Shown: positions 573-60,019 of the stretch, piece by piece
Position numbering within the stretch: the first letter of the stretch is position 1
Layout: each line of letters starts with the position of its first letter
Source of the DNA: Squalus acanthias
Lineage: Eukaryota
Direction: 5' to 3'
DNA length: 64,000 nt
Assembly: GCA_030390025.1 (NCBI GenBank)
Contig: CM059432.1
Span: forward strand, 34,288,001-34,352,000
Translations under genes and position numbers: made by a program
Notes under the pieces: model-generated
The model's database searches: none
What the model saw: only the letters and a program-made list of their open reading frames with translations
What the model was told of the DNA's origin: nothing

Positions 573-632
573 TTGGGTTCCATATTAACCCCCTCACGAC
601 AGGTGGGAGATGGGTGGTGGGAGGGTTCAGAG

Positions 633-860
633 AATCATCGAATGGTTACAGCACAGAAGAAGGCTATTCGGCCCGTCGAGCCCATGCCAACTCTCAGCTA
701 GTCCCACTCCCCTGCCCTTTCTCCGTAGCCCTGCAAATTTTTTTCCTTCAGATACTTATCCAACTCCCTTTTGAAAGATAAGATTGAGTCTGCCTCCATC
801 ACCCTTTCAGGAAGTGCATTCCAGATCTTAAACACTCGCTGTGTAAAAAAGTTTTTTCTT
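633..860 (-). mobile_element. CR1 LINE 3' fragment
   Basis: C-terminal ORF2 peptide FFTQRVFKIWNALP...FKRELDKYL plus CR1 3' UTR. Confidence 0.85.
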
Positions 861-1057
861 ACGAGTGAAACATGCAAACGCTTCAACAGTAGTTTGCACT
901 TTCATCTCCCCCATCACCATCCGTCGCTCTCCTGGGCAATCGGCACATCACCCCTGTCTCTCTGCGGGAGAGCAACTTGGAGCAGATCAGTGATGTCTTG
1001 TTAGCCCATGGCTAAACTATCTGTCAAAGGGATGATGGTGGAAGGCAAAAAGGGGTG

Positions 1058-4000
1058 TTTTTTTTATTCGTTCATGGGATGTGGGCGTCGCTGGCAAGGC
1101 CAGCATTTTATTGCCAATCCCTAGTTGCTCTTGAGAAGGTGGTGGTGAGCGGCCTTCTTGAACCGCTGCAGTCCGTGTGGTGAAGGTACTCCCACAGTGC
1201 TGTTAGGGAGGCAGTTCCAGGATTTTGACCCAGCGACGATGAAGGAACGGCGATATATTTCCAAGTCAGAATGGTGTGTGACTTGGAGGGGAACTTGCAG
1301 GTGGTGGTGTTCCCATGCGCCTGCTGCCCTTGTCCTTCTAGGTGGTAGAGGTCACGGGTTTGGGAGGTACTGCCGAAGAAGCCTTGGTGAGTTGCTGCAG
1401 CGCATCTTATAGATGGTACACACTGCAGCCACGGTAAGCCGGTAGTGGAGGTTTAAGGTGGGGGATGGGATGCCAATCAAATGAGCTGCTTTGTCCAGGA
1501 TGGTATCAAGCTTCTTGAGTGTTGTTGGAGCTGCACTCATCCAGGTAAGTGGAGAGTATTCCATCACACTCCTGACTTGTGCCTTGTAGATGGTGGAAAG
1601 GCTTTGGGGAGTCAGGATGTGAGACACTCGCCACAGAATACCCATCCACTGACCTGCTCTTGTTGCCACAGTATTTATGTGGCTGGTCCAGTTAAGTTTC
1701 TGGTCAACAGTGACCCCCAGGATATTGATGGTGGGGGATTCGGTGATGGTAATGCCGTTGAATGTCAAGGGGTGGTGGTTAGATGCTCGCTTGTTGGAGA
1801 TAGTCATTGCCTGGGACTTGTGTGGCGTGAATGTTACCAGCCACTTATCAGCCCAAGTCTGAATGTTGTCAAGGTCTTGCTGCATGTGGGCATGGACTGC
1901 TTCATTATTTGAGGAGTTGCGAATGGAACTGAACATGGTGCAGTCATCAGCGAACATCCCCACTTCTGACTTTATGATGGAGGGAAGGTCATTGATGAAG
2001 CAGCTGAAGATGGTTGGGCCTAGGACACTGCCCTGAGGAACAGCTGCAGCGATGTCCTGGGGCTGTGATGATTGACCTCCAGCCACCACAACCATCTTCC
2101 TTTGTGCTAGGTATGACTCCAGCCAGTGGAGAGTTTTCCCTCTGATTCACATTGACTTCAGTTTTATTAGGGCTCCTTGATGTCATATTCGGTCAAATGC
2201 TGCCTTGATGTCAAGGGCAGTCACTCTCATCTCACCTCTGGAATTCAGCTCCTTTGTCCATGTTTGGACCAAGGCTGTAATGAGGTCTGGAGCCGAGTGG
2301 TCCTGGTGGAACCCAAACTGGGCATCAGTGAGCAGGTTATTGGTGAGTAAGTGCTGCTTGATAGCACTGTCGATGACACCTTCCATCACTTTGCTGATGA
2401 TTGAGAGCAGACTGATGGGATGCTGGTTGGTCGGATCGGATTTGTCCTGCTTTTTGTGGAAAGGACATACCTGGGCAGTTTTCCACATTGTCGGATAGAT
2501 GCCAGTGTTATTGTTGTACTGGAACAGCTTGGCTAGAGGCACAGCTAGTTCTGGAGCACAAATCTTCAGCATGACAGCCGGGATGTTGTCGGGGCCCATA
2601 GTCTTTGCTGTATCCAGTGCGCTCAGCCGTTTCTTGATATCACGTGGAGTGAATCGAATTGGCTGAAGACTGGCTTCTGTAGTGGTGGGTACCTGAGGAG
2701 GAGGCCGATATGGATCATCCACTCGGCACTTCTGGCTGAAGATGGTTGCAAACGCTTCAGCTTTGTCTTTTGCACTCACATGCTGGGCTCCACCATTATT
2801 GAGGATGGGGATATTCATGGAGCCTCCTCCTCCCGTTAGTAGTTTAATGGTCCACCACCATTCACGACTGGATGTAGCAGGACTGCAGAGCTTTGATCTG
2901 ATCCGTTGATTGTGGTATCACTTATAAACTCTTTCTATAGCATGCTGCTTCCACTTTTTAGCATGCATGTAGTTCTGTGTTGCAACTTCCCCAGGTTGGC
3001 ACCGCATTTTTAGGTACGCCTGGTGCTGCTCCTGGCATGCTCATCTACACTCCTCATTGAACCAGGGTTGGTCACCTGGCTTGATGGTAATGGTAGAGTG
3101 AGGGATATGCCGGGCCATGAGGTTACAGATTGTGGTGGAATACAATTCTGCTGCTGCTGATGGCCCACAGCGCCTCATGGATGCCCAGTTTTGAGTTGCT
3201 AGATCTGTTCTGAATCTATCCCATTTAGCACGGTGGTAGTGCCACACAACACGATGGAGGGTGTCCTCAGTGTGAAGACGAGATTTCGTCTTCACAATGA
3301 TTGTGCAGTGGTCACTGCTACCAATGCTGTCATGGATAGATAGATTGGTGAGGACAAGGTCAAGTAGGTTGTTCCCTCGTGTTGGTTCTCTCACCACCTG
3401 TCGCACCAGACTGGCAGCTATGTGCTCCAGGACTCGGCCAGTAGTGGTGCTACCGAGCCACTCTTGGTAATGGACATTGAAGTTGCCCACCCAGAGTACA
3501 TTCTGTGCCCTTGCTACTCTCAGTGCTTCTTCCAAATGGTATTCAACATGGAGGAGTACTGATTCATCAGCTGAGGGAGGGCAGTAGGTGGTAATCAGCA
3601 GGAGGTTTACTTGCCCATGCTTGATATGAGACTTCATGGGATCCGGAGTCAATGTTGAGCACTCCCAGGGCCACTCCTTCCCAACTGTCTACCACTGTGC
3701 CGCCACCCCTGACAGGACAGACCCAGGGATGGTGATGGAGGAGTTTGGGACATTGGCTGAAAGGTATGATTCTGTGAGTATGACTATGTCAGGCTGTTGC
3801 TTGACTAGTCTGTGGGATGGTTCTCCCAATTTTGGCAGAAGTCCCCAGATGTTGGTGAGGATGACTTTGCAGGGTTGACTGGGCTAGGTGTGCCATTGTC
3901 ATGTCTTTAGCCGGTGCCGATGCCGAGGTCAATGCCGGGTGGTCCGTCCGGTTTATTCTTATTGCTTTTCGTAGCTTTTTTTACAACTGAGCTTGCTAGG

Positions 4001-4281
4001 CCATTTCAGAGGGCAGTTAAGAGTCAACCACATTGCTGTGGGTCTGGAGCCACATATAGGCCAAACCAGGTAAAGATGACAGATTTCCTTCCCTAAAGGA
4101 CATTAGTGAACCAGATGGGTTTTTACAACAATCCGATAGTTACCATATTCCAGATTTATTTTATTAACTGAATTTAAATTCCCCAGCTGCCGTGGTGGGA
4201 TTTGAACTCATGTCTACTGGATCATTAGTCCAGGCCTTTGGATTACTAGTCCAGTAACATAACCACTATGCTACTGTTTCC
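1058..4281 (-). mobile_element. Family A LINE, full-length decayed copy 1 (tRNA-like head + APE endonuclease + RT, no ORF1; CR1-group)
   Basis: EN motifs TNIWGL, GNFNVH, LLDLVLTN, SDH; RT motifs ALDIKAAFD, PQGSVLGP, FADD; A8 tail at 1058-1065; splits a Penelope-derived fragment (1021-1057 / 4282-4480). Confidence 0.93.
4198..4273 (-). promoter_or_regulatory. Pol III type-2 internal promoter of family A copy 1
   Basis: A-box TAGCATAGTGG (4273-4263) fits TRGCNNARYGG; B-box GAGTTCAAATCC (4209-4198). Confidence 0.85.
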
Positions 4282-9920: not shown

Positions 9921-12900
9921 GGGAACGGTAGCATAGTGGTTATGTTATTGGACGAGTAATACCAGAAGCCTGAATAATCCGGTAGATGTGAGTTCAAATC
10001 CCACCACGGCAGCTATGGTATTTTAAATTAGTTAATTAAATAAATCTTGACTTGGATTGTTGTAAAAACCCACCTTTTGGTTTCACTAACGTCCTTTAGG
10101 GTAGGAAATCTGCTGTCTTTACCTGGTCTGGCCTATATGTGACAGCAATGTGGTTGATTCTTAACTGCCCTCTAAAATGGCCTAGCAAGCCACTGAGTTG
10201 TACACAACCACTACGAAAAACAATAATAAGAATAAAACCGGACATACCTCGGCACCGGCTTCGGATATGACAACGGCAGACCCAGGCCAGTCGACCCTGC
10301 AAAGTCCTCCACACCAACATCTGGGGACTTGTGCCAAAATTGGGAGAGCTGACTCACAGACTAGTCAAGCAACAGCCTGACATAGTCATACTCACAGAAT
10401 CTAACCTTCAGCCAATGTCCCAAACTCCTCCATCACCATCCCTGGGTATGTCCTGTCCCACCGGCAGGACCGACCAACCAGAGGTGGTGGCACAATGGTA
10501 TACAGTCGGAAAGGAGTGGCCCTGAGAGTCCTTAACATTGACTCTGGACCCCATGAAGTCTCATGGGTTCAGGTCAAGCATGGGCAAGGAAACCTCCTAC
10601 TGATTACCACCTACCGCCCTCCCTCAGCTGATGAATCAGTACTCCTCCATGTTGAACACCACTTGGAAAAAGCACCGAGGGAAGCAAGGGCACAGAATTT
10701 ACTCTGGGTGGGGGACTTCAATGTCCATCACCAAGAGTGGCTCGGTAGCACCACTACTGACCGAGCTGGCCGAGTCCTGAAGGATATAGCTGCCAGACTG
10801 GGCCTGTGGCAGGTGGTGAGAGAACCAGCACGAGGGGAAAAACCTACTTGACCTCGTCCTCACCAATCTACCTGTCACAGATGCATCTGTCCCTGACAGC
10901 ATTGGTAGCAGTGACCACCGCACAATCCTTGTGGAGATGAAATCCCGCCTTCAGACTGAGGACACCCTCCATCGTGTTGTGTGGCACTACCACCGTGCTA
11001 AATGGGATAGATTCAGAACAGATCTAGGCACTGTGGGCCATCAGCAGCAGCAGAATTATATTCCACCACAATCTGTGACCTCATGGCCCGGCATATTCCT
11101 CACTCTACCATTACCATCAAGCCAGGGGACCAACCCTGGTTCAATGAGGAGTGCAGAAGAGCATACCAGGAGCAGCATCAGGCATATCTACAAATGAGGT
11201 GCCAACCTGGGGAAGCTGCAACACAGGACTACATGCATGCTAAACAGCGGAAGCAGCATGCTATAGACAGAGCTAAGCAAGCCCACAATCAACGGATCAG
11301 ATCAAAGCTCTGCAGTCCTGCCACATCCAGTCGTGAATGGTGGTGGACAATTAAACAACTAATGGGAGAAGGAGGCTCCATGAATATCCCCATCCTGAAT
11401 GATGACAGAGCCCAGCATGTGAGTGCAAAAGACAAGGCTGAAGTGTTTGCAACCATCTTCAGCCAGAAGTGCCGAGTGGATGATCCATATCGACCTCCTC
11501 CTGAGGTCCTCACCATCACAGAAGCCAGTGTTCAGCCAATTCGATTCACTCCACGTGATATCAAGAAACGGCTGAGCGCACTGGATACAGCAAAGGCTAC
11601 GGGCCCCGACAACATCCCGGCTATCGTGCTGAAGGCTTATGCTCCAGAACTAGCTGTGCCTCTAGCCAAGCTGTTCCAGTACAGCTACAACACTGGCATC
11701 TACCTGACATAACTGCCCAGGTATGTCCTGTCCAAAAAAAGCTGGACAAATCCGATCTAGCCAATTACCGCCCCATCAGTCTACTCTCAATCATCAGTAA
11801 AGTGATGGAAGGTGTCATTGACAGTGCTATCAAGCGACACTTACTCACCAATAACCTGCTCACCGATGCCCTGTTTGGGTTCCGCCAGGACCACTCGGCT
11901 CCAGACCTCATTACAGCCGTGGTCCAAACATGGACAAAAGAGTTGAATTCCAGAGGTGAGGTGAGAGTGACTGCCCTTGACATCAAGGCAGCATTTGACC
12001 GAGTGTGGCATCAAGGAGCCCTAGTAAAACTGAAGTCAATGGGAATCGGGGGGAAAGTCTCCACTGGCTGCAGTCATACCGAGCACAAAGGAAGATGGTT
12101 GCAGTTGTTGGAGGTCAATCATCACAGCCCCAGGACATTGCTGCAGGAGTTCATCAGGGCAGTGTCCTAGGCCCAACCATCTTCAGCTGCTTCATCAATG
12201 ACCTTCCCTCCATCATAAGGTCAGAAGTGGGGATGTTCGCTGATGATTGCACAGTGTTCAGTTCCATTCGCAACTCCTCAGATAATGAAGCAGTCCATGC
12301 CCGAATGCAGCAAGACCTGGATGACATTCAGGCTTGGGCTGATAACTGGCAGGTAACATTCATGCCACAAAAGTGCCAGGCAATGACTATCTCCAACAAG
12401 TAAGAGTCTAACCACCACCCCTTGACATTCAACGGCATTACCATCGCTGAGTCCCCCACCATCAACATCCTTGGGGTCACCATTGACCAAAAACTTAACT
12501 GGACCAGCCACATAAATACTGTGTCGACAAGAGCAGGTCAGAGGCTGGGTATTCTGCGGCGAGTGTCTCACCTCCTGATTCCACAAAGCCTTTCCACCAT
12601 CTACAAGGTACAAGTAAGGAGTGTGATGGAATACTCTCCACTTGCCTGGATGAGTGCAGCTCCAACAACACTCAAGAAGCTCAACACCATCCAGGACAAA
12701 GCAGCCCGCTTGATTGGCACCCCATTCACCACCTTAAACATTCACTCCCTGCACCACCAGGGTACCGTGGCTGCAGTGTGTACCATCTACAAGATGCACT
12801 GCAGCAACTTGCCAAGGCTTCTTCGGCAGCACCTCCCAAGCCCGCGACCTCAACCACCTAGAAGGACAAGGGCAGCAGGCGCACGGGAAGACCATCACCT

Positions 12901-13137
12901 GCAAGTTCCCCTCCAAGTTACACACCATCCTGACATGGAAATATATCACCGTTCCTTCATCGCCGCTGGGTCAAAATCCTGGAACTCCCTCCCTAACAGC
13001 ACTGTGGGAGTACCTTCACTACAAGGACTGCAGCGGTTTAAGAAGGCAGCTCACCACCACCTTCTCAAGGGCAATTAGGGATGGGCAATAAATGCTGGCC
13101 TTACCAGCAACGCCCACATCCCAGGAACAAGTAAAAA
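9921..13137 (+). mobile_element. Family A LINE, full-length decayed copy 2
   Basis: Same head, body, EN (GDFNVH, SDH), RT (QGSVLGP, FADD) and tail as copy 1; same length, about 3.2 kb. Confidence 0.93.
9929..10001 (+). promoter_or_regulatory. Pol III A-box/B-box of family A copy 2
   Basis: TAGCATAGTGG 9929-9939; GAGTTCAAATCC 9990-10001. Confidence 0.85.
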
Positions 13138-15066: not shown

Positions 15067-16572
15067 AACCTCTCTGGGTACGTCGAGGGCATCCTGAAAC
15101 CCATCGTACAGGGAACCCCCAGCTTCTGTCGCAACACTACAGACTCCTTGCAGAAACTCAGCACCCATGGACCAGTTGAACCAGGAACACTCCTCGCCAC
15201 GATGGACGTATCGGCACTCTACACCAATATCCCCCACGATGACGGCATCGCTGCGACAGCCTCAGTACTCAACACCAACAACAGACAATCTCCAGACGCC
15301 ATCCTACAACTCATCCGCTTCATCCTTGACCACAATGTCTTCACCTTCGACAACCAGTTTTTTACCCAAACACACGGAACAGCCATGGGGACCAAATTCG
15401 CACCCCAATACGCCAACATCTTCATGCACAAGTTCAAGCAAGACTTCTTCGCTGCACAGGACCTCCAACCAACGCTGTACACCAGATACATCGACGACAT
15501 CTTCTTCCTTTGGACCCACGGTGAAGGATCACTGAAAGGACTACACGATAACATCAACAGGTTCCATCCCACCATCAAACTCACCATGGACTACTCTTCA
15601 GAATCGGTTTCATTCCTGGACACACGAATCTCCATCAAAGACGGACACCTCAGCACTTCACTCTACCGCAAGCCCACGGACAACCGCACGATGCTCCACT
15701 TCTCCAGCTTCCACCCTAACCACGTTAAAGAAGCCATCCCCTATGGACAAGCCCTGCGAATACACAGGATCTGCTCAGACGAGGAGGAACGCGATGGACA
15801 CCTACGGATGCTGAAAGATGCCCTCGTAAGAACGGGATATGACGCTCGACTCATTGATCGACAGTTCCGACGGGCCACAGCGAAAAACCACATAGACCTC
15901 CTCAGAAGGCGAACACGGGACACAACCAACAGAGTACCCTACGTCGTCCAGTACTTCCCCGGAGTGGAGAAACTACGCCATGTTCTTCGCAGCCTTCAAT
16001 ATGTCATCGATGACGACGAACACCTTGCTAAGGCCATCCCCACGCCTCCACTACTCGCCTTCAAGCAGCCGCCTAACCTCAAAAGTACCATCGTTCGCAG
16101 CAAATTACCCAGCTGTCAGGAGAACAGCGACCACGACACCACACAACCCTGCCACGGCAACCTCTGCAAGACATGCCGGATCATCAACACAGATACCATC
16201 ATCACACGTGAGGACACTACCCACCAGGTACATGGTACATACTCATGTGACTCGGCCAACGTTGTCTACCTCATACGTTGCAGGAAAGGATGCCCCGGAG
16301 CATGGTACATCGGCGAGACAATGCAGACACTGAGACAACATATGAACGGACACCGCGCAACAATCGCCAGGCAGGATTGTTACCTCCCAGTCGGGGAACA
16401 CTTCAGCAGTCAAGGACATTCAGCCTCGGATCTGCGGGTAAGCGTTCTCCAAGGCGGCCTTCGAGACACATGACAACGCAAAATCATCGAGCAGAAACTG
16501 ATAGCCAAGTTCCGCACCCATGAGGACGGCCTCAATAGGGATCTCGGGTTCATGTCACGCAACAGAACGTGA
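15067..16572 (+). pseudogene. Penelope RT-endonuclease ORF, 5'-truncated, one premature TGA at 16471-16473
   Basis: Frame is open from 15067 and continues QRKIIEQKLIAKFRTHEDGLNRD after the stop. Confidence 0.88.
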
Positions 16573-27097: not shown

Positions 27098-27512
27098 ATA
27101 GTGTTGTGGTTATGTTACTGGACTAGTAATTCAGAGGATGTGAGTTCAAATACCACCATGACAGATTGATCATTTCAATTCAGTTTTTAAAAATCTAGAA
27201 CTAAAAAGCTGACATCAGTAAAAGTGACCATGAAACTGCCGGTCACTTTAGTCATAAAAACCCAACTGGTTTACGAATGTACTTTAAGAAAGGAAACCTG
27301 CTGTCCTTACCCAGTCTGGCCTATATGTGACTCCAATCCACACTAACATAGTTGACTCTTAACTGCCCTGTGAAATGGCCTAGCAAGCCACACAGTTGTA
27401 TCAAAACTGCTACTATACTGGAACTTCATACCAAGCAGCACTGTGGGAGCACCTTCACCATATGGATTGCAGCGGTTAGAAGGTCCACTACCATGTTCTC
27501 AAGGCAACTAGG
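27098..27512 (+). mobile_element. SINE-like derivative of family A with a longer 3' segment
   Basis: gtggttatgttactggactagtaa head, B-box, body, then cagcactgtgggagcaccttcacc...aaggcaactaggga from the LINE 3' end. Confidence 0.8.
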
Positions 27513-27844
27513 GAGAATCCTACTTATAAGCCTACTTAAACTAACAATATTATGGACATACAAACTAGGAGCCTAAAAGGTTCACTGGGCCCAAAATGTC
27601 CATCACTTTTAAATAGATCAGACACACCCAGGTCAGGTAACAACAGAGGGCAGACTGGCCCTATCAGGAGATTTCCTGAGTGCCCCCGTAAATGGTTTCA
27701 TAGCACTGTATTATTGTCCCCCTCCCTTTTTCCAAGAGAATCCCCCATTATACAATTACTTTTCTGTTGTTTGATTTTTTTTTAACCCAAGGTAGGGGAT
27801 GTCGATGCTGGCTTGTGGAATTTTTCTACCTTCTGCACCCAGTG

Positions 27845-33535: not shown

Positions 33536-35220
33536 TTTTTTTTTAATTCGTTCCTGGGATGTGGGTATCGCTGGCAAGGCCAGCATTTATTGCCCATTCC
33601 TAGTTGCCCTTGAGAAGGTGGTGGTGAAATGCCTTCTTAAACTGTTGCAGTCCGTGTGGTGAAGGTACTCCCACAGTACTAATAGGGAGGAAGTTCCAGG
33701 ATTTTGACCCAGTGACGATGAAGGAACGGCAATATACTTCCAAGTTAGGATGGTGTGTAACTTGGAAGAGAATTTGGAGGTGGTGGTGCTCCCATGCGCC
33801 TGCTGCCCTTGTCCTTCTAGGTGGTAGAAGTCATGGGTGTGGGAGGTGCTCCCGGAGAAGCCTTGGCAAGTTGCTGCAGTGCATCTTGAAGATGGTACAC
33901 ACTGCAGCCACGGTACGCTGATGGTGGAGGGAGTGAATGTTTAAGGTGGTGGATGGGGTGCCAATCAAGCGGGCTGCTTTGTCCTGGATGGTGTTGAGCT
34001 TCTTGAGTGTTGTTGGAGCTGCACTCATCCAGGCAAATGGAGAGTATTCCATCACACTCCTGACCCACTGGAATTCAGCTCTTTCGTCCATGTTTGGACC
34101 AAGGCTGTAATGAGGTCTGGAGCCGAGTGGTCCTGGCGGAACCCAAATTGGGCATCAGTGAGCATGTTATTAGTGAGTAAGTGCTGCTTGATAGCACTGT
34201 CGATGACACCTTCCATCACTTTGCTGATGATTGAGTGTAGACTGATGGTGCGGTAATTTTCCGGATTGGATTTGTCCTGCTTTTTGTGGACAAGACATAC
34301 CTAGGCAGTTTTCCACATTGTTGGGTATGCCAGTGTTGTAGCTGTACTGGAACAGCTTGGCTAGAGGCACAGCTAGTTCTGGAGCACAAGTCTTCAGCAC
34401 GATATCCGGGATGTTGTCGGGGTCCACAGCCTTTGCTGTATCCAGTGCGCTCAGCCATTTCTTGATATCACGTGGAGTGAATCGAATTGGCTGAAAACTG
34501 GCTTCTGTGAAGGTGGGGACCTCAGAAGGAGGCCGATATGGAAAATCTACTCGGCACTTTTGGCTGAAGATGGTTGCAAACGCTTCAGCCTTGTCTTTTG
34601 CACTCACGTGCTGGGCTCCACCATCATTGAGGATGGGGATATTCATGGAGCCTCCTCCTCCCGTTAGTTGTTTAATTGTCCACCACCATTCATGACTGGT
34701 TGTGGCAGGACTGCAGAGCTTTGATCTGATCTATTGATTGTGGGATCGCTTATCCCTGTCTATAGCATGCTGCTTCCGCTTTTTAGCATGCATGTAGTCC
34801 TGTGTTGCAGCTTCCCCAGGTTGGCACCGCATTTTTAGATATGCCTGGTGCTGCTCCTGGCATGCTCTTCTACACTCCTTATTGAACCAGGGTTGGTCCT
34901 CTGGCTTGGTGGTAATGGTAGAGTGAGAGATATGCCAGGCCATGAGGTTACAGATTGTGGTGAATACAATTCTGCTGCTGCTGTTGGCCCACAGCGCCTC
35001 ATGGATGCCCAATTTTGAGCTGCTAGATCTGTTCTGAATCTATCCCAATTTGCACGGTGGTAGTGCCACACAACACAATGGAGGGTGTCCTCAGTGTGAA
35101 GACGGGACTTCGTCTTCACAATGACTGTGCGGTGGTCACTGCTACCAATGCTGTCATGGACAGATGCATTTGCAACAGGTAAATTGGTGTGAAAGAGGTC
35201 AAGTAGGTTTTTCCCTCGTG
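33536..35220 (-). mobile_element. Family A LINE, 5'-truncated with an internal deletion of the RT core
   Basis: SDH to 3' tail; junction near 34065 skips from ELNS to VRSVMEY. Confidence 0.9.
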
Positions 35221-36022: not shown

Positions 36023-38158
36023 GAGTGACTGCCCTTGACACCAAGGCAGCATTTGACCGAGTGTGGCATCAAGGAGCCCTAATAATATTGAAGTCAATGG
36101 GAATCAGGGGGAAAAGTCTCCACTGGCTGGAGTCATACCTAGCACAAAGGAAGATGGTTGTGGTTGTTAGAGGTCAATCATCTCAGCCCCAGGACATTGC
36201 TGCAGGTGTCCCTCAGGGCAGTGTCCTGGGCCCAACCATCTTCTGCTGCTTCATCAATGACCTACCCTCCAACTTTGAGGTGCCTGCTGTACATGGTCCA
36301 TGTCTCTTAGGCATACAGCAGGGCGGGTATCACTGCTGCTCTGTAGACCATGAGATTAGTGCTGGGTTTGAGGTACTGGTCTTCAAACACTCTCTTCCTC
36401 AGGCGACCGAAGGTTGCACTGGCACACTGAAGGCAGTGTTGGACTTCGTCGTCGACGTTTGCCCTTGTTGACAGTAGGCTCCCGAGGTATGGAAAGTGGT
36501 CCACGTTGTCCAAGGCCTTGTCGTGGATTTGATAATCGGGGGGCAGTACTGTGTGGCAGGGGCAGGTTGGTAGAGGACCTTTGTCTTACGGATGTTTAGT
36601 GTAAGGCCCATGCTCTCAGAGACATGGACCATGTACAGCAGGCACCTCAAAGCACTGGAGAGGTACCACCAACGCTGCCTCCGCAAGATCCTGCAAATCC
36701 ATTGGCAGGATAGACGCACCAACGTCAGTGTTCTTGCTCAGGCCAACATCCCCAGCATCGAAGCTTTGACCACGCTCGATCAGCTCCGATGGATGGGTCA
36801 CATTGTCCGCATGCCTGATACGAGACTCCCAAAACAAGCACTCTACTCGGAGCTCCGGCATGGCAAGAGAGCCCCAGGTGGGCAGAGGAAATGCTTCAAG
36901 GACACCCTCAAAGCCTCCTTGAAAAAGTGTAACATCCCCACCGACACCTGGGAATCCCTGGCCCAAGACCGCACAAAGTGGAGGAGAAGCATCCGGGAAG
37001 GCGCCGAACACCTCGAGTCTCTTCGCCGGGAGCAAGCAGAAGCCAAGCGCAGGCAGCGCAAGGAGCGCACGTCAACCCAAGCACCCCACCCACCTGCTCC
37101 TTCAACCACCGTCTGCCCCACCTGTGACAGAGACTGTAGGTCCCGCATTGGACTCATCAGTCACCTGCAAACTCATTTTTAATGTGGAAGCAAGTCATCC
37201 TCGGTTCCGAGGGACTGTCTAAGAAGAAGAAGAAGACCCTCCATCATAAGGTCAGAAGTGGGGATGTTCGGTGATGATTGCACAGTGTTCAGTTCCATTC
37301 GCAAATCCTCAGATAATGAAGCAGTGCAGCAAGACCTGGACGACATTCAGGCTTGGGCTGATAAGTGGCAAGTACAATCTCGCCACACCAGTGCCAGGCA
37401 TTGACTATCTCCAACAAGCGAGAGTTTAACCACCACCCCTTGACATTCAATGGCATTACCATCGCCGAATCCCCCAACATCAACATCCTGGGGTCACCAT
37501 TGACCAGAAACTTAACTGGACCAGCCACATAAATACTGTGGCAACAAGAGCAGGTCAGAGGCTAGGTATTCTGCGGTGAGTGTCTCACCTCCTGACTCCC
37601 CAAAGCCTTTCTACCATCTACAAGGCACAAGTAAGGAGTGTGATGGAATACTCTCCAATTGCCTCAATGAGTGCAGCTCCAACAACACTCAAGAAGCTCG
37701 ATACCATACAGGGCAAAGCAGCCTGCTTGATTGGCACCCCATCCACCACCTTAAACATTCACTCCCTCCACCACCGGCGTACCGTGGCTGCAGTGTGTAC
37801 CATCTACAAGATGCACTGCAGCAACTCGCCAATGCTTCTTCGGCAGCACCTCCCAAACCCACGACCTCTTCCACCTAGAAGGACAAGGGCAGCAGGCGCA
37901 TGGGAACACAACCACCTGCAAATTCCCTTTCAAGTCACACACCATCCTGACTTGGAAATATATCACCGTTCCTTCATCGTCGCTGGGTCAAAATCCTGGA
38001 ACTCCCTCCCTAACAGCACTGTGGGAGTACCTTCACCACACGACTGCAGCGGTTCAAGGTGGCGGCTCACCACCACCTTCTCAAGGGCAATTAGGGATTG
38101 GCAATAAATGCTGGCCTTGTCAGCAACGCCCACACCCCCAGAACGAATAATAAAAAAA
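36023..38158 (+). mobile_element. Family A LINE, 5'-truncated, interrupted by an RTE element
   Basis: TALDTKAAFDRVWH, PQGSVLGP; resumes at 37236 and runs to the A-rich tail. Confidence 0.9.
36272..37235 (+). mobile_element. RTE-clade LINE fragment with an inverted 5' segment
   Basis: FPYLGS, QLRWMGHIVRMPDTRLPKQALYSEL, C-terminal CxxC..H; (AAG)n tail; 8-bp TSD accctcca (36264-36271, 37236-37243). Confidence 0.9.
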
Positions 38159-55092: not shown

Positions 55093-55437
55093 TTTTATTT
55101 ATTCATTCTTGGGATGTGGTCGTCACTGGCATTACTGATCATCCTTAGAACTGAGTGGCTTACGAGGCTGATTCAGAGTCAACCACATCTGTGTGGGACT
55201 GATGTCACATATCGACCAGACCGGGTAAGGACAGCAGGTTTCTTTCGCTAAAGGACATTAGTGAAACAGATGGGTTTTTACGACAATCTGTCATCTTCAT
55301 GGTCACTTTTACTGATACCAGCTTTTTATTTCGAGATTTAAAAAAAACCTGAATTCTAATTCTCAAACTGCCATGGTGGAATTGTGAACTCAGTTTCTCT
55401 GGATTACTGGTCCAGTAACATAACTACTTGACTACTG
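55093..55437 (-). mobile_element. SINE-like derivative of family A with a very short tail
   Basis: Head gttatgttactggacc, body, then cacatcccaagaatgaataaataaaa. Confidence 0.78.
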
Positions 55438-58199: not shown

Positions 58200-59428
58200 T
58201 CAGTTGCCCAAAGGTCTAAGTGCCGGCAGGGGGATTGGAGCAGCAATTCACGAGGGGGGCTAATCGCAAGGACTGTGAATTCGGAGGAGCACTCCTGCTG
58301 CTCCTGACTCCACAGGAACGCTTTTTTAATATTTTTCTGCTGGCGGCTGATCCTTAGTCCGCCGCAGCAATTGAAGAATCCTGAGCGGGTCTAGACCAGC
58401 TGGGGCTCCACTCATCAGAACCCCAATTCCCAGAGGGATCCTTAAACATGTGATAGGTCCCTCATTAACATATGCAAGGGGCCTAATGCCAGTTATAGGC
58501 AGTAATCCAGGACACCTAAAAAATGAACCTGGTAAATTTAGCAGTGGCTCGAATGCATGCACAGATTGGTCCCATTACTAACGTCATAGTTGCACCAATT
58601 TTAGGCCCAAAAACCAATTTGAATCCACCATGTGAAATATCTAATTCATCCATTCACCTTCCCTCTTCTCTAAGCTTCATCCCATGCCTATTACTGTTTT
58701 TGTGAGCACAATAAACTGTTTCGCAAGATTCAACCTGTTGATGACGTTAAGGATCTTGAATTGGTCCCGTGAGAGGAAATATTGTTATGGGAGAAAACTT
58801 GAACTGTAACACTGACATCCTGCGCTTAAAATGATCAGTAGCAGTAACCCTGGCTGAGTTTTTTTTCCTGCCCCAGAGATGCTGAAGTCAATTGTTGTGC
58901 CTAAGCTGAGATCAGCTAACTCCGCACAGGTATCAAACCTGGGATCATCCAATAATGTGTGGCTTAGATGGTGCATTTACCCACTGAACCATTTGGGCAT
59001 CCAGTTTTAGCAGCTTGCTTATGAGAAATGGGAATAAATGGAAATATAGACATGGCATTTAAATTTCTGCCAATGTTCAGGTAGCCTAGTGCACCATGGC
59101 AGAGAAACACATGTTAAGACCCCAATCTTGACTGAGTGCTGTTAGGGGGAGTGTTGAGACAGGGACTCTGAAGGCAGGTAACTAGCTTAAACATCCATTC
59201 CCTCCACCATTGGCGTACCATGACTGTAGTGTGCACTATCTACAGGAATTCGCCAAAAGCTTCTTCGGCAGCACCCCCCAGACCCACGACCTCCAAGACC
59301 TGGACAGACAAGCGCAACAGGTGCATTTGGGGGTTAGAATACAATTGATTTCTTTCATCTGGTTAGCTCTCCTCACCCCATGAACCATACCTTGTCAAGG
59401 AGGCTGCCAATAATTGTCCTCAAGTCAA

Positions 59429-60019
59429 ATGGAGAATAGATTGTTTCTGCATGGTAGATCTTCTCCAGGTGGTGTACATGGTAGATCTTCTGCAAGTGAT
59501 GCACCTTCTCCATGTGGTAGATCTTCTCCAAATGACAGACCTTCTCCGTGTGGTAGATCTTGTCCAAGTAACAGATATTCTCCAGGCAGCAGATCTTCTG
59601 CAAGTGCTGTACCTTCTCCAGGTGGTAGATCTTCTCCAAGTGACAGACTTTCTCCGTGTGGTACATCTTCTCAAGATGGTAGGTCTCCAAGTGAGGATCC
59701 GCCTCCAGTTGGTACATCTTTTCCAGGTGGAGGATCTTTTCCAAGTGACGAAACTTCTCCAGTTGGTACATCTTCTCCAAGTGATGGATCGTCTCCAGAT
59801 GGTACATATTCTCCAGGTGGTAGATCTTCTCCAAGTGACAGACCTTCCCCAGTTAGTAGATCTTCTCCAGGTAGATCTTCTCCAAGTGACAGACCATCTT
59901 CAGGTGCTAAATCGTCCCCAGTTGGTACATCTTCTCTAGGGGGTAGATCTTCTCCAAGTGGCAGATCTTTTCCAAGTGATAGATCATCTGCAAGGGTATA
60001 TCTTGGATCACCTGAGTGA
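59429..60019 (+). CDS. Candidate Ser/Pro/Gly/Arg-rich repetitive ORF or exon (unverified)
   Basis: ATG 59429 to TGA 60019 is open across the whole array; unit-length variants are whole codons. Confidence 0.3.
   Translation: MENRLFLHGRSSPGGVHGRSSASDAPSPCGRSSPNDRPSPCGRSCPSNRYSPGSRSSASAVPSPGGRSSPSDRLSPCGTSSQDGRSPSEDPPPVGTSFPGGGSFPSDETSPVGTSSPSDGSSPDGTYSPGGRSSPSDRPSPVSRSSPGRSSPSDRPSSGAKSSPVGTSSLGGRSSPSGRSFPSDRSSARVYLGSPE
59450..60000. repeat. Degenerate 18-bp tandem repeat (ggtagatcttctcca[a/g]gt)
   Basis: About 30 diverged units; reads GRSSPS, VVDLLQ or (minus) HLEKIY. Confidence 0.9.

Follow-up and report, generated by a model that had tools for sequence, protein, structure and literature searches.

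A probable CpG-decay scar and a leader that looks coding upstream of the endonuclease frame of a tRNA-headed LINE in Squalus acanthias

SINEs of the SacSINE1 type, which occur in sharks, chimaera and coelacanth, combine a tRNA head with a Deu domain and a tail like that of the LINE L2-2_CM (PMC5499810, PMC3747384 and PMC2746220, in their accessible parts). In the accessible text of two further papers, the function of the Deu domain is described as unknown (PMC4824008) and its origin likewise (PMC5786205). Bipartite derivatives of LINEs have been put forward as a source of SINE bodies, the examples being Bov-B with Bov-A and Bov-tA, and Vingi; as far as the available portion of that study goes, only the 5′ ends of RTE and Vingi elements had been found in SINE bodies, while no such source emerged for the Deu domain (PMC5786205).

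Unconventional initiation of ORF2 is described for LINE-1 (Alisch 2006) and for SART1, which relies on UAAUG coupling (PMC5972666 and PMC3708506, in part). Further, 2A peptides are described in single-ORF APE LINEs of the Rex1, Crack, L2, L2A, CR1 and Ingi groups (PMC3708506, available portion). UUG and ACG are listed among the near-cognate start codons in the part of PMC3105428 available here.

The locus considered here lies in a stretch of 64,000 nucleotides of Squalus acanthias (assembly GCA_030390025.1, contig CM059432.1, positions 34,288,001 to 34,352,000), hereafter the window. An earlier note on this DNA had drawn attention to an ATGA shortly upstream of an endonuclease frame and had proposed that translation requires non-AUG or cap-independent initiation, or a +1 frameshift. 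The analysis below suggests that the ATGA is damage, and that the question of the start codon belongs about 100 bases further upstream.

Layout of the LINE and of the SINEs in the window

Two 3.2-kb copies of the LINE are present, copy 2 at 9921-13137 on the plus strand and copy 1 at 4281-1061 on the minus strand, which are 87% alike by blastn and are the only copies within the window to reach the 5′ end. The two diverge from each other by 9.0% and from third copies by about 7-11%, so they do not form a closer pair. In copy 2 (all plus strand) the element opens with a tRNA-like head (9921-10015) containing an A box (9929-9939) and a B box (9992-10001), with the same boxes in copy 1; the head matches the Rfam tRNA model weakly, at 17.6 bits, under the 29-bit cut-off. 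It is followed by a SINE-type body (10055-10202) common to the short repeats at 323-473, 27255-27413 and 55200-55288. This body is a putative Deu domain, a label that fits the layout of the window SINEs. The decayed endonuclease–reverse transcriptase (EN-RT) frame occupies 10313-13078 in copy 2, and 3856 to about 1120 on the minus strand in copy 1; it matches Pfam PF14529, PF03372 and PF00078 and is broken in both copies. The 3′ tail (13079-13137) is common to the SINE copies by sequence sharing, and head, body and tail of the window SINEs are all present in the LINE copies. An APE endonuclease followed by a reverse transcriptase and an A-rich 3′ end is the arrangement of an APE-type LINE. Among named homologues the nearest belong to horn shark, whale shark and catshark, and the tail common to SacSINE1-like SINEs would assign the element to the L2 clade (PMC5499810, in part).

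The A and B boxes expected of a Pol III unit are found in the head of both copies. Runs of four or more T on the sense strand number 0 in copy 1 (shuffle mean 2.1, P 0.11), two in copy 2 (P 0.45), confined to its head and body, and two in a third piece; with each copy taken by itself, the depletion against shuffles does not reach significance. A Pol III RNA without a cap would be compatible with the boxes and the few T-runs and is, on these features, possible.

Several other features of the window were recorded. In the SINE copy at 27255-27514 (+), the body continues as far as the opening letters of the A-rich tract of the LINE, from where the sequence skips to the LINE's last ~160 bases, so that the copy resembles an internal deletion of the LINE; the SINE copies at 323-573 and at about 55100-55400 have their body-tail junctions at other points. 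A third family copy is fragmented, with one part on the minus strand (33540-35220) and two on the plus strand (36023-36271 and 37237-38153); an RTE-like piece lies in between at 36574-37182, and the arrangement looks like a 5′ inversion plus a later insertion. An open frame of 468 codons at 15067-16473 (+) resembles by eye a Penelope-type reverse transcriptase with a GIY-YIG-like end and is less decayed than the surrounding LINEs, and a tandem repeat with a period of about 6 codons at 59367-60019 leaves several frames open on both strands.

Scans of viral, genome and metagenome contigs for further copies with flanks yielded none that was usable. Viral contigs gave one chance match (L001), and metagenome contigs gave one distant two-ORF LINE (L002) without a match to the head or body. 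L002 (480-1500) is an unrelated LINE with a Cys-rich ORF1, in which ORF2 has no obvious AUG before the endonuclease and starts right at the ORF1 stop.

The ATGA site and its variants

The letters at the site are as the earlier note gave them. In copy 2, ATG 10267-10269 overlaps TGA 10268-10270; the TGA is in the EN frame, 15 codons ahead of the T of the endonuclease motif TNIWGL (10313), with no ATG in between, and the ATG opens a 37-codon frame that ends at 10380 (10267-10380, +). Copy 1 has ATGA at the same site (3902-3899 on the minus strand) with its own 37-codon frame ending at 3789 (3902-3789). In copy 2 an A-rich segment (10203-10237) and a GC-rich segment (10238-10312) do lie upstream. 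The 37-codon frame has no Pfam match, and a protein search with the 64 residues of copy 2 that lie above the ATG and span it returned no candidate. The further step, that the ATGA is a conserved signal, did not survive comparison with related sequences.

Contigs of 4 of the 24 listed runs, from four different related organisms (38-46% of words), were mapped to copy 1 over 3700-4070; the runs are DNA or untyped contig runs, and contig depth in them does not equal copy number. RNA runs, in which just 0-15% of the words occurred, were left aside. Position 3901, the T of the copy 1 ATGA, reads C at 46, 66, 45 and 53% of depth in the four runs (68, 65, 77 and 83 contigs), so that the EN-frame stop of copy 1 reverts in 45-66% of depth and the family majority has CGA, for arginine, in place of the TGA. 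The C share is probably understated and a lower bound, since copy 1 departs from the majority at several nearby places and copies unlike the reference are lost; depth at 3901 amounts to 12-34% of the depth at 3886. In 2, 12, 16 and 14% of depth the codon is CGG (3899 = G), which likewise encodes arginine. The horn shark gene model P0004 and the whale shark model P0167 encode K-D across the site in the neighbouring frame; the EN-frame codon must then be AGA or GGA, so that neither an ATG nor a stop is present. As automatic gene models, they serve as supporting evidence only. The other two leader stops of copy 1 revert in the reads as well, 3931 at 64-95% and 3886 at 94-98% of depth.

CGA to TGA and ACG to ATG are standard products of CpG decay in vertebrate repeat copies, and the ATGA site shows no difference from that pattern. 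Since the family letter at 3901 is C and the site is a CpG, the overlapping ATG and TGA can be read as decay of ACG and CGA. A single C-to-T change at a CpG yields both, which removes the case for a device at 10267-10270 made of an out-of-frame AUG, an in-frame stop and a +1 frameshift. We therefore consider it very probable that the ATGA of both copies is a methyl-CpG decay scar, from ACGA to ATGA; the 37-codon ORF and the +1 frameshift are by-products of this decay. The scar would have arisen after insertion, separately in each copy, or within a defective lineage.

CpG decay is frequent in these copies. Among 49 sites with CG in a third window copy, TG is found at 7 in copy 1, at 9 in copy 2 and at 1 in both, a CG-to-TG rate of 14-18% per copy; with 11 CpGs in the leader, the chance of at least one shared TG is about 0.24. 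Further, the leader has four ACG triplets whose decay would create an ATG in the same wrong frame, and in copy 1 two such ATGs are present (3902, 3896). What speaks against the scar is that the non-C share at 3901, 34-55% of depth, exceeds the 14-18% rate per copy. Reference bias can account for the excess.

The same non-C share, and the presence of ATGA in both copies, speak for a kept start-stop device, in which EN-RT would arise through a +1 shift from the 37-codon frame or through a start immediately below the TGA; a precedent for overlapping stop and start codons exists in SART1 (PMC5972666 and PMC3708506, accessible parts). However, C is the largest or an equal allele in all four runs, the CGG and AGA/GGA variants keep a sense codon there, and the frame above the site is coding (see below). 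The four ACG triplets, with two decayed in copy 1, also tell against it. Moreover, the AUG of SART1 opens its downstream ORF, whereas the AUG here is out of frame. We regard such a device as highly improbable.

A defective origin deserves somewhat more weight. Descent of both copies from a non-autonomous master with a fixed ATGA, moved in trans by intact elements, would fit the high non-C share at 3901. A stop variant at 3796 of copy 1, within the EN domain, stands at 28% of depth in one run and at 1-3% in the others; a defective lineage may have been amplified in that organism, which leaves room for a lineage with a fixed ATGA. Against a common master, the distance between copies 1 and 2 is not smaller than their distance from third copies, and the two differ beside the site. 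LINE proteins prefer their own RNA (cis preference), which disfavours movement in trans. A defective master is, on balance, rather improbable, and it would still make the ATGA a loss-of-function change: under the scar reading or the defective-lineage reading, the ATGA is damage and not a device. Nor does an indel bring the ATGA AUG into the EN frame, which the earlier note had named as the finding that would overturn its claim; none of the 8 indel rows from the four runs on copy 1 falls between 3700 and 3964. The flagged ATGA is most probably ordinary decay for which a +1 frameshift is not required, and this reading removes a false recoding signal.

Coding character of the leader above TNIWGL

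The earlier note had pointed out the A-rich and GC-rich segments just upstream of the ATGA. They look like coding sequence and not like an untranslated, structured leader, forming an N-terminal leader of the EN-RT protein (10186-10312, +) that has 49 codons in the family majority and has lost 20 nt in copy 2. Each window copy preserves one part of it at family length. The A-rich tract (10203-10237, +) is 35 nt in copy 2, the family length according to read-derived strings, and 30 nt in copy 1; the GC-rich segment has its family length in copy 1 (3857-3951, minus strand), where it carries EN-frame stops at 3931, 3901 and 3886. A computed majority version combines the A-rich tract of copy 2 with the GC-rich segment of copy 1 and the letters that prevail in the reads. 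In this version the EN frame is open for 49 codons, from TAG 10183-10185 to TNIWGL. Depth over the A-rich tract is low (about 600-4000), and its length rests on copy 2, the read-derived strings and one gene model, P0004, which aligns gap-free and in the same phase from the SINE body through the A-rich tract.

The composition of the leader is Asn/Lys-rich in its A-rich part and Arg/His-rich in its GC-rich part. For comparison, among 166 proteins the first EN strand was located in 87 and the leader was comparable in 54. Arg and Lys make up 32% of the last 25 leader residues, against 16% in the leaders of 42 relatives and 10% in their EN bodies. The EN-frame leader scores highest with P0055/P0157 (53; reached in 0 and 2 of 500 shuffles) and P0010 (38; 2 of 500), which are among the closer non-shark EN relatives and have in common an Arg-rich H/P-R-L-R stretch before the first strand. 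The other two frames match P0167, whose model is read there, or have lower top scores of 37 and 34 (2 and 4 of 500 shuffles). Since other frames also score, the leader-match test alone is modest, and the matches, between low-complexity basic peptides, are marginal after 54 comparisons.

The pattern of variants points the same way. Among 13 listed leader variants, 9 are of CpG type, 1 is the letter of copy 1 itself and 3 belong to neither group; this classing omits rows of low depth at 3958 and above, together with the letters private to copy 1 at 3818-3821, 3838, 3862 and 3886. The three informative variants (3895, 3899 and 3908) are all synonymous in the EN frame and none is synonymous in either of the other frames. 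For the same class of variant in the EN body, the variants listed comprise 3 synonymous changes, 2 Ser-to-Thr changes and 1 stop. RNA structure gave no signal: folding of four real segments gave z of 0.33-0.90 and no IRES- or ribozyme-like structure, and three majority segments, with z of -0.09 to -0.37, did not go beyond shuffles. A 2A peptide in the leader was considered and rejected, the NPG[PG] motif being absent from all three frames. The leader would be translated in active elements, and we consider it likely that both parts of the account, the ATGA scar and a protein-coding, Arg-rich leader of the EN-RT frame, hold together.

Two observations concern the neighbouring frame. Over 10148-10350 (+), two frames are open side by side for about 50 codons in the majority version. 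In horn shark and whale shark, gene prediction has joined the non-EN frame by splicing to models of host genes (P0004, P0167 and P0022).

Candidate start sites and described counterparts

The claim that the frame lacks a normal AUG start holds in one respect and fails in another. No ATG is found in the 49 open codons above TNIWGL in the majority version; the ATGA site is not the reason for this. That a plain in-frame AUG is lacking is probably true, but the place concerned lies about 100 bases upstream of the ATGA, at an AUG-GCC-UAG in the SINE-type body. It follows that the start is either non-canonical or is the AUG at 10177, combined with readthrough or a CAG allele. Searches of the accessible literature found no paper on the start codon of this LINE family. 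Starts of relatives of at least 900 residues, as placed by gene callers, lie within 50 residues of the first EN strand in 21 of 23. A downstream start at ATG 10495 was rejected, as it is absent from copy 1 and would cut the first EN strands.

The nearest in-frame AUG belongs to the sequence ATG GCC TAG at 10177-10185 (+), in the 3′-terminal part of the SINE-type body, with counterparts at 4004-3996 in copy 1 and at 27375 in a SINE copy. It has a purine at -3 and G at +4, a strong context by the Kozak rule, and is followed by GCC TAG CAA. At family spacing, in the computed majority version, it lies 156 nt or 52 codons from the T codon; in the real window copies it is out of frame, at 136 and 148 nt. 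An in-frame AUG, a single stop and a long open frame, the layout of a readthrough gene, are thus present in the majority version only. UAG-CAR-YYA is a known readthrough context, and the UAG followed by CAA here fits only its first half. Further, the TAG (10183; copy 1, 3998) reads CAG at 24, 19, 22 and 18% of depth with SINE and LINE copies pooled, so that CAG might be an allele of the SINEs alone; TAG is the reading in the two LINE copies of the window and in one SINE copy. The TAG-to-CAG allele at 3998/10183 occurs in all four organisms, at a non-CpG site, as a subfamily marker. A ribosome starting at 10177 would produce the full protein through leaky UAG readthrough or from CAG masters. 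LINEs need very little EN-RT protein, for which reason a weak start would be tolerable. Judged from the sequence, this is the likeliest of three routes, and we favour it tentatively.

A less favoured possibility, on the same scarred leader, is a near-cognate start in the A-rich tract region, at UUG 10198 or ACG 10213. Ribosomes would get there by reinitiating once the two-codon AUG-GCC-UAG frame had been read, or by entering an uncapped RNA independently of a cap. These two codons (TTG 10198-10200 and ACG 10213-10215) are the sole in-frame near-cognates between the TAG and TNIWGL, the ACG and the TAG are found in both window copies, and the A-rich tract is unpaired in folds. Precedents are available in the accessible part of one paper for reinitiation after very short uORFs in strong context, as well as for unconventional ORF2 initiation in LINE-1 and SART1 (PMC5972666). 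However, the ACG start is weakened since many contigs read ACA: the loose-end majorities are ACA in all four runs, and the table has 13-31% A at low depth. In addition, the UUG has C at -3, and structure that might aid entry does not go beyond shuffles (z about 0).

The third route would use the ATG at 10148-10150 (+; copy 1, 4033), also in the SINE-type body, which opens the frame one base downstream of the EN frame; a -1 slip on an A-run would then lead into the EN frame and bypass the TAG. In the majority version the frame of this ATG meets no stop until after the EN domain has begun, it is likewise stop-free in P0004 and P0167, some read-derived strings have 6-8 consecutive A, and copy 1 has an A7 heptamer. 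Yet a slippery heptamer is absent from both the majority version and copy 2, no downstream stimulator was seen (folding z about 0), and the informative variants are non-synonymous in that frame in three of three cases. The gene models P0004 and P0167 are themselves biased evidence, because gene predictors pick open frames. A -1 frameshift is therefore unlikely.

With the ATGA set aside, the remaining question is how a tRNA-headed LINE with a single ORF begins translation. Should it do so at the AUG within the SINE-type body, the Deu domain would serve as leader to a coding RNA, and if the RNA is made by Pol III, the element would be a natural case of a translated uncapped Pol III transcript. 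At its fullest, this reading makes the Deu-type SINE body the translation leader of an autonomous, Pol III-transcribed LINE, in which the 3′ end of the body supplies the AUG and EN-RT is made from uncapped RNA by UAG readthrough at codon 3 or from CAG masters. We rate the full reading as unlikely; were it true, it would give both a function and an origin to a SINE domain of unknown role.

Similarly to LINE-1 and SART1, and to R2 elements, which are not known to have a conserved AUG, the LINE here has an EN-RT frame without a simple first-AUG start. Unlike LINE-1 and SART1, it has no ORF1, and its upstream frame consists of two codons in the same frame as the main ORF. In SART1-type coupling the overlap is kept in the family, the AUG opens the EN-RT ORF and the stop ends the upstream ORF, an arrangement that was not found at this locus: the ATGA is not a stop-start junction, and its AUG is one base off the EN frame.

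The 2A-bearing APE LINEs likewise have a single ORF with an N-terminal extension before the endonuclease. However, they carry GD(V/I)ExNPGP upstream of the endonuclease, whereas the leader here is without NPGP in its three frames. An NPGP-like motif lies upstream in 7 of the 87 relatives (P0039, P0056, P0090, P0119, P0129, P0130 and P0141). In those seven distant relatives, the 2A-like motif precedes a basic leader and the endonuclease.

As in the Bov and Vingi families, the SINE is built from 5′ and 3′ parts of a LINE; in those families, by the available portion of the study, the tRNA head was added to the SINE only (PMC5786205). The closest counterparts are the Deu-SINEs SacSINE1 and LmeSINE1 together with their tail donor L2-2_CM, which are like the window SINEs in head, body and L2-type tail (PMC5499810 and PMC3747384, in part). 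For SacSINE1 and LmeSINE1, homology between SINE and LINE is reported for the tail alone in the accessible text (PMC5499810), whereas the LINE described here adds the head and the body. It also differs from these SINEs and from L2-2_CM in that its nearest in-frame AUG lies inside the SINE-type body.
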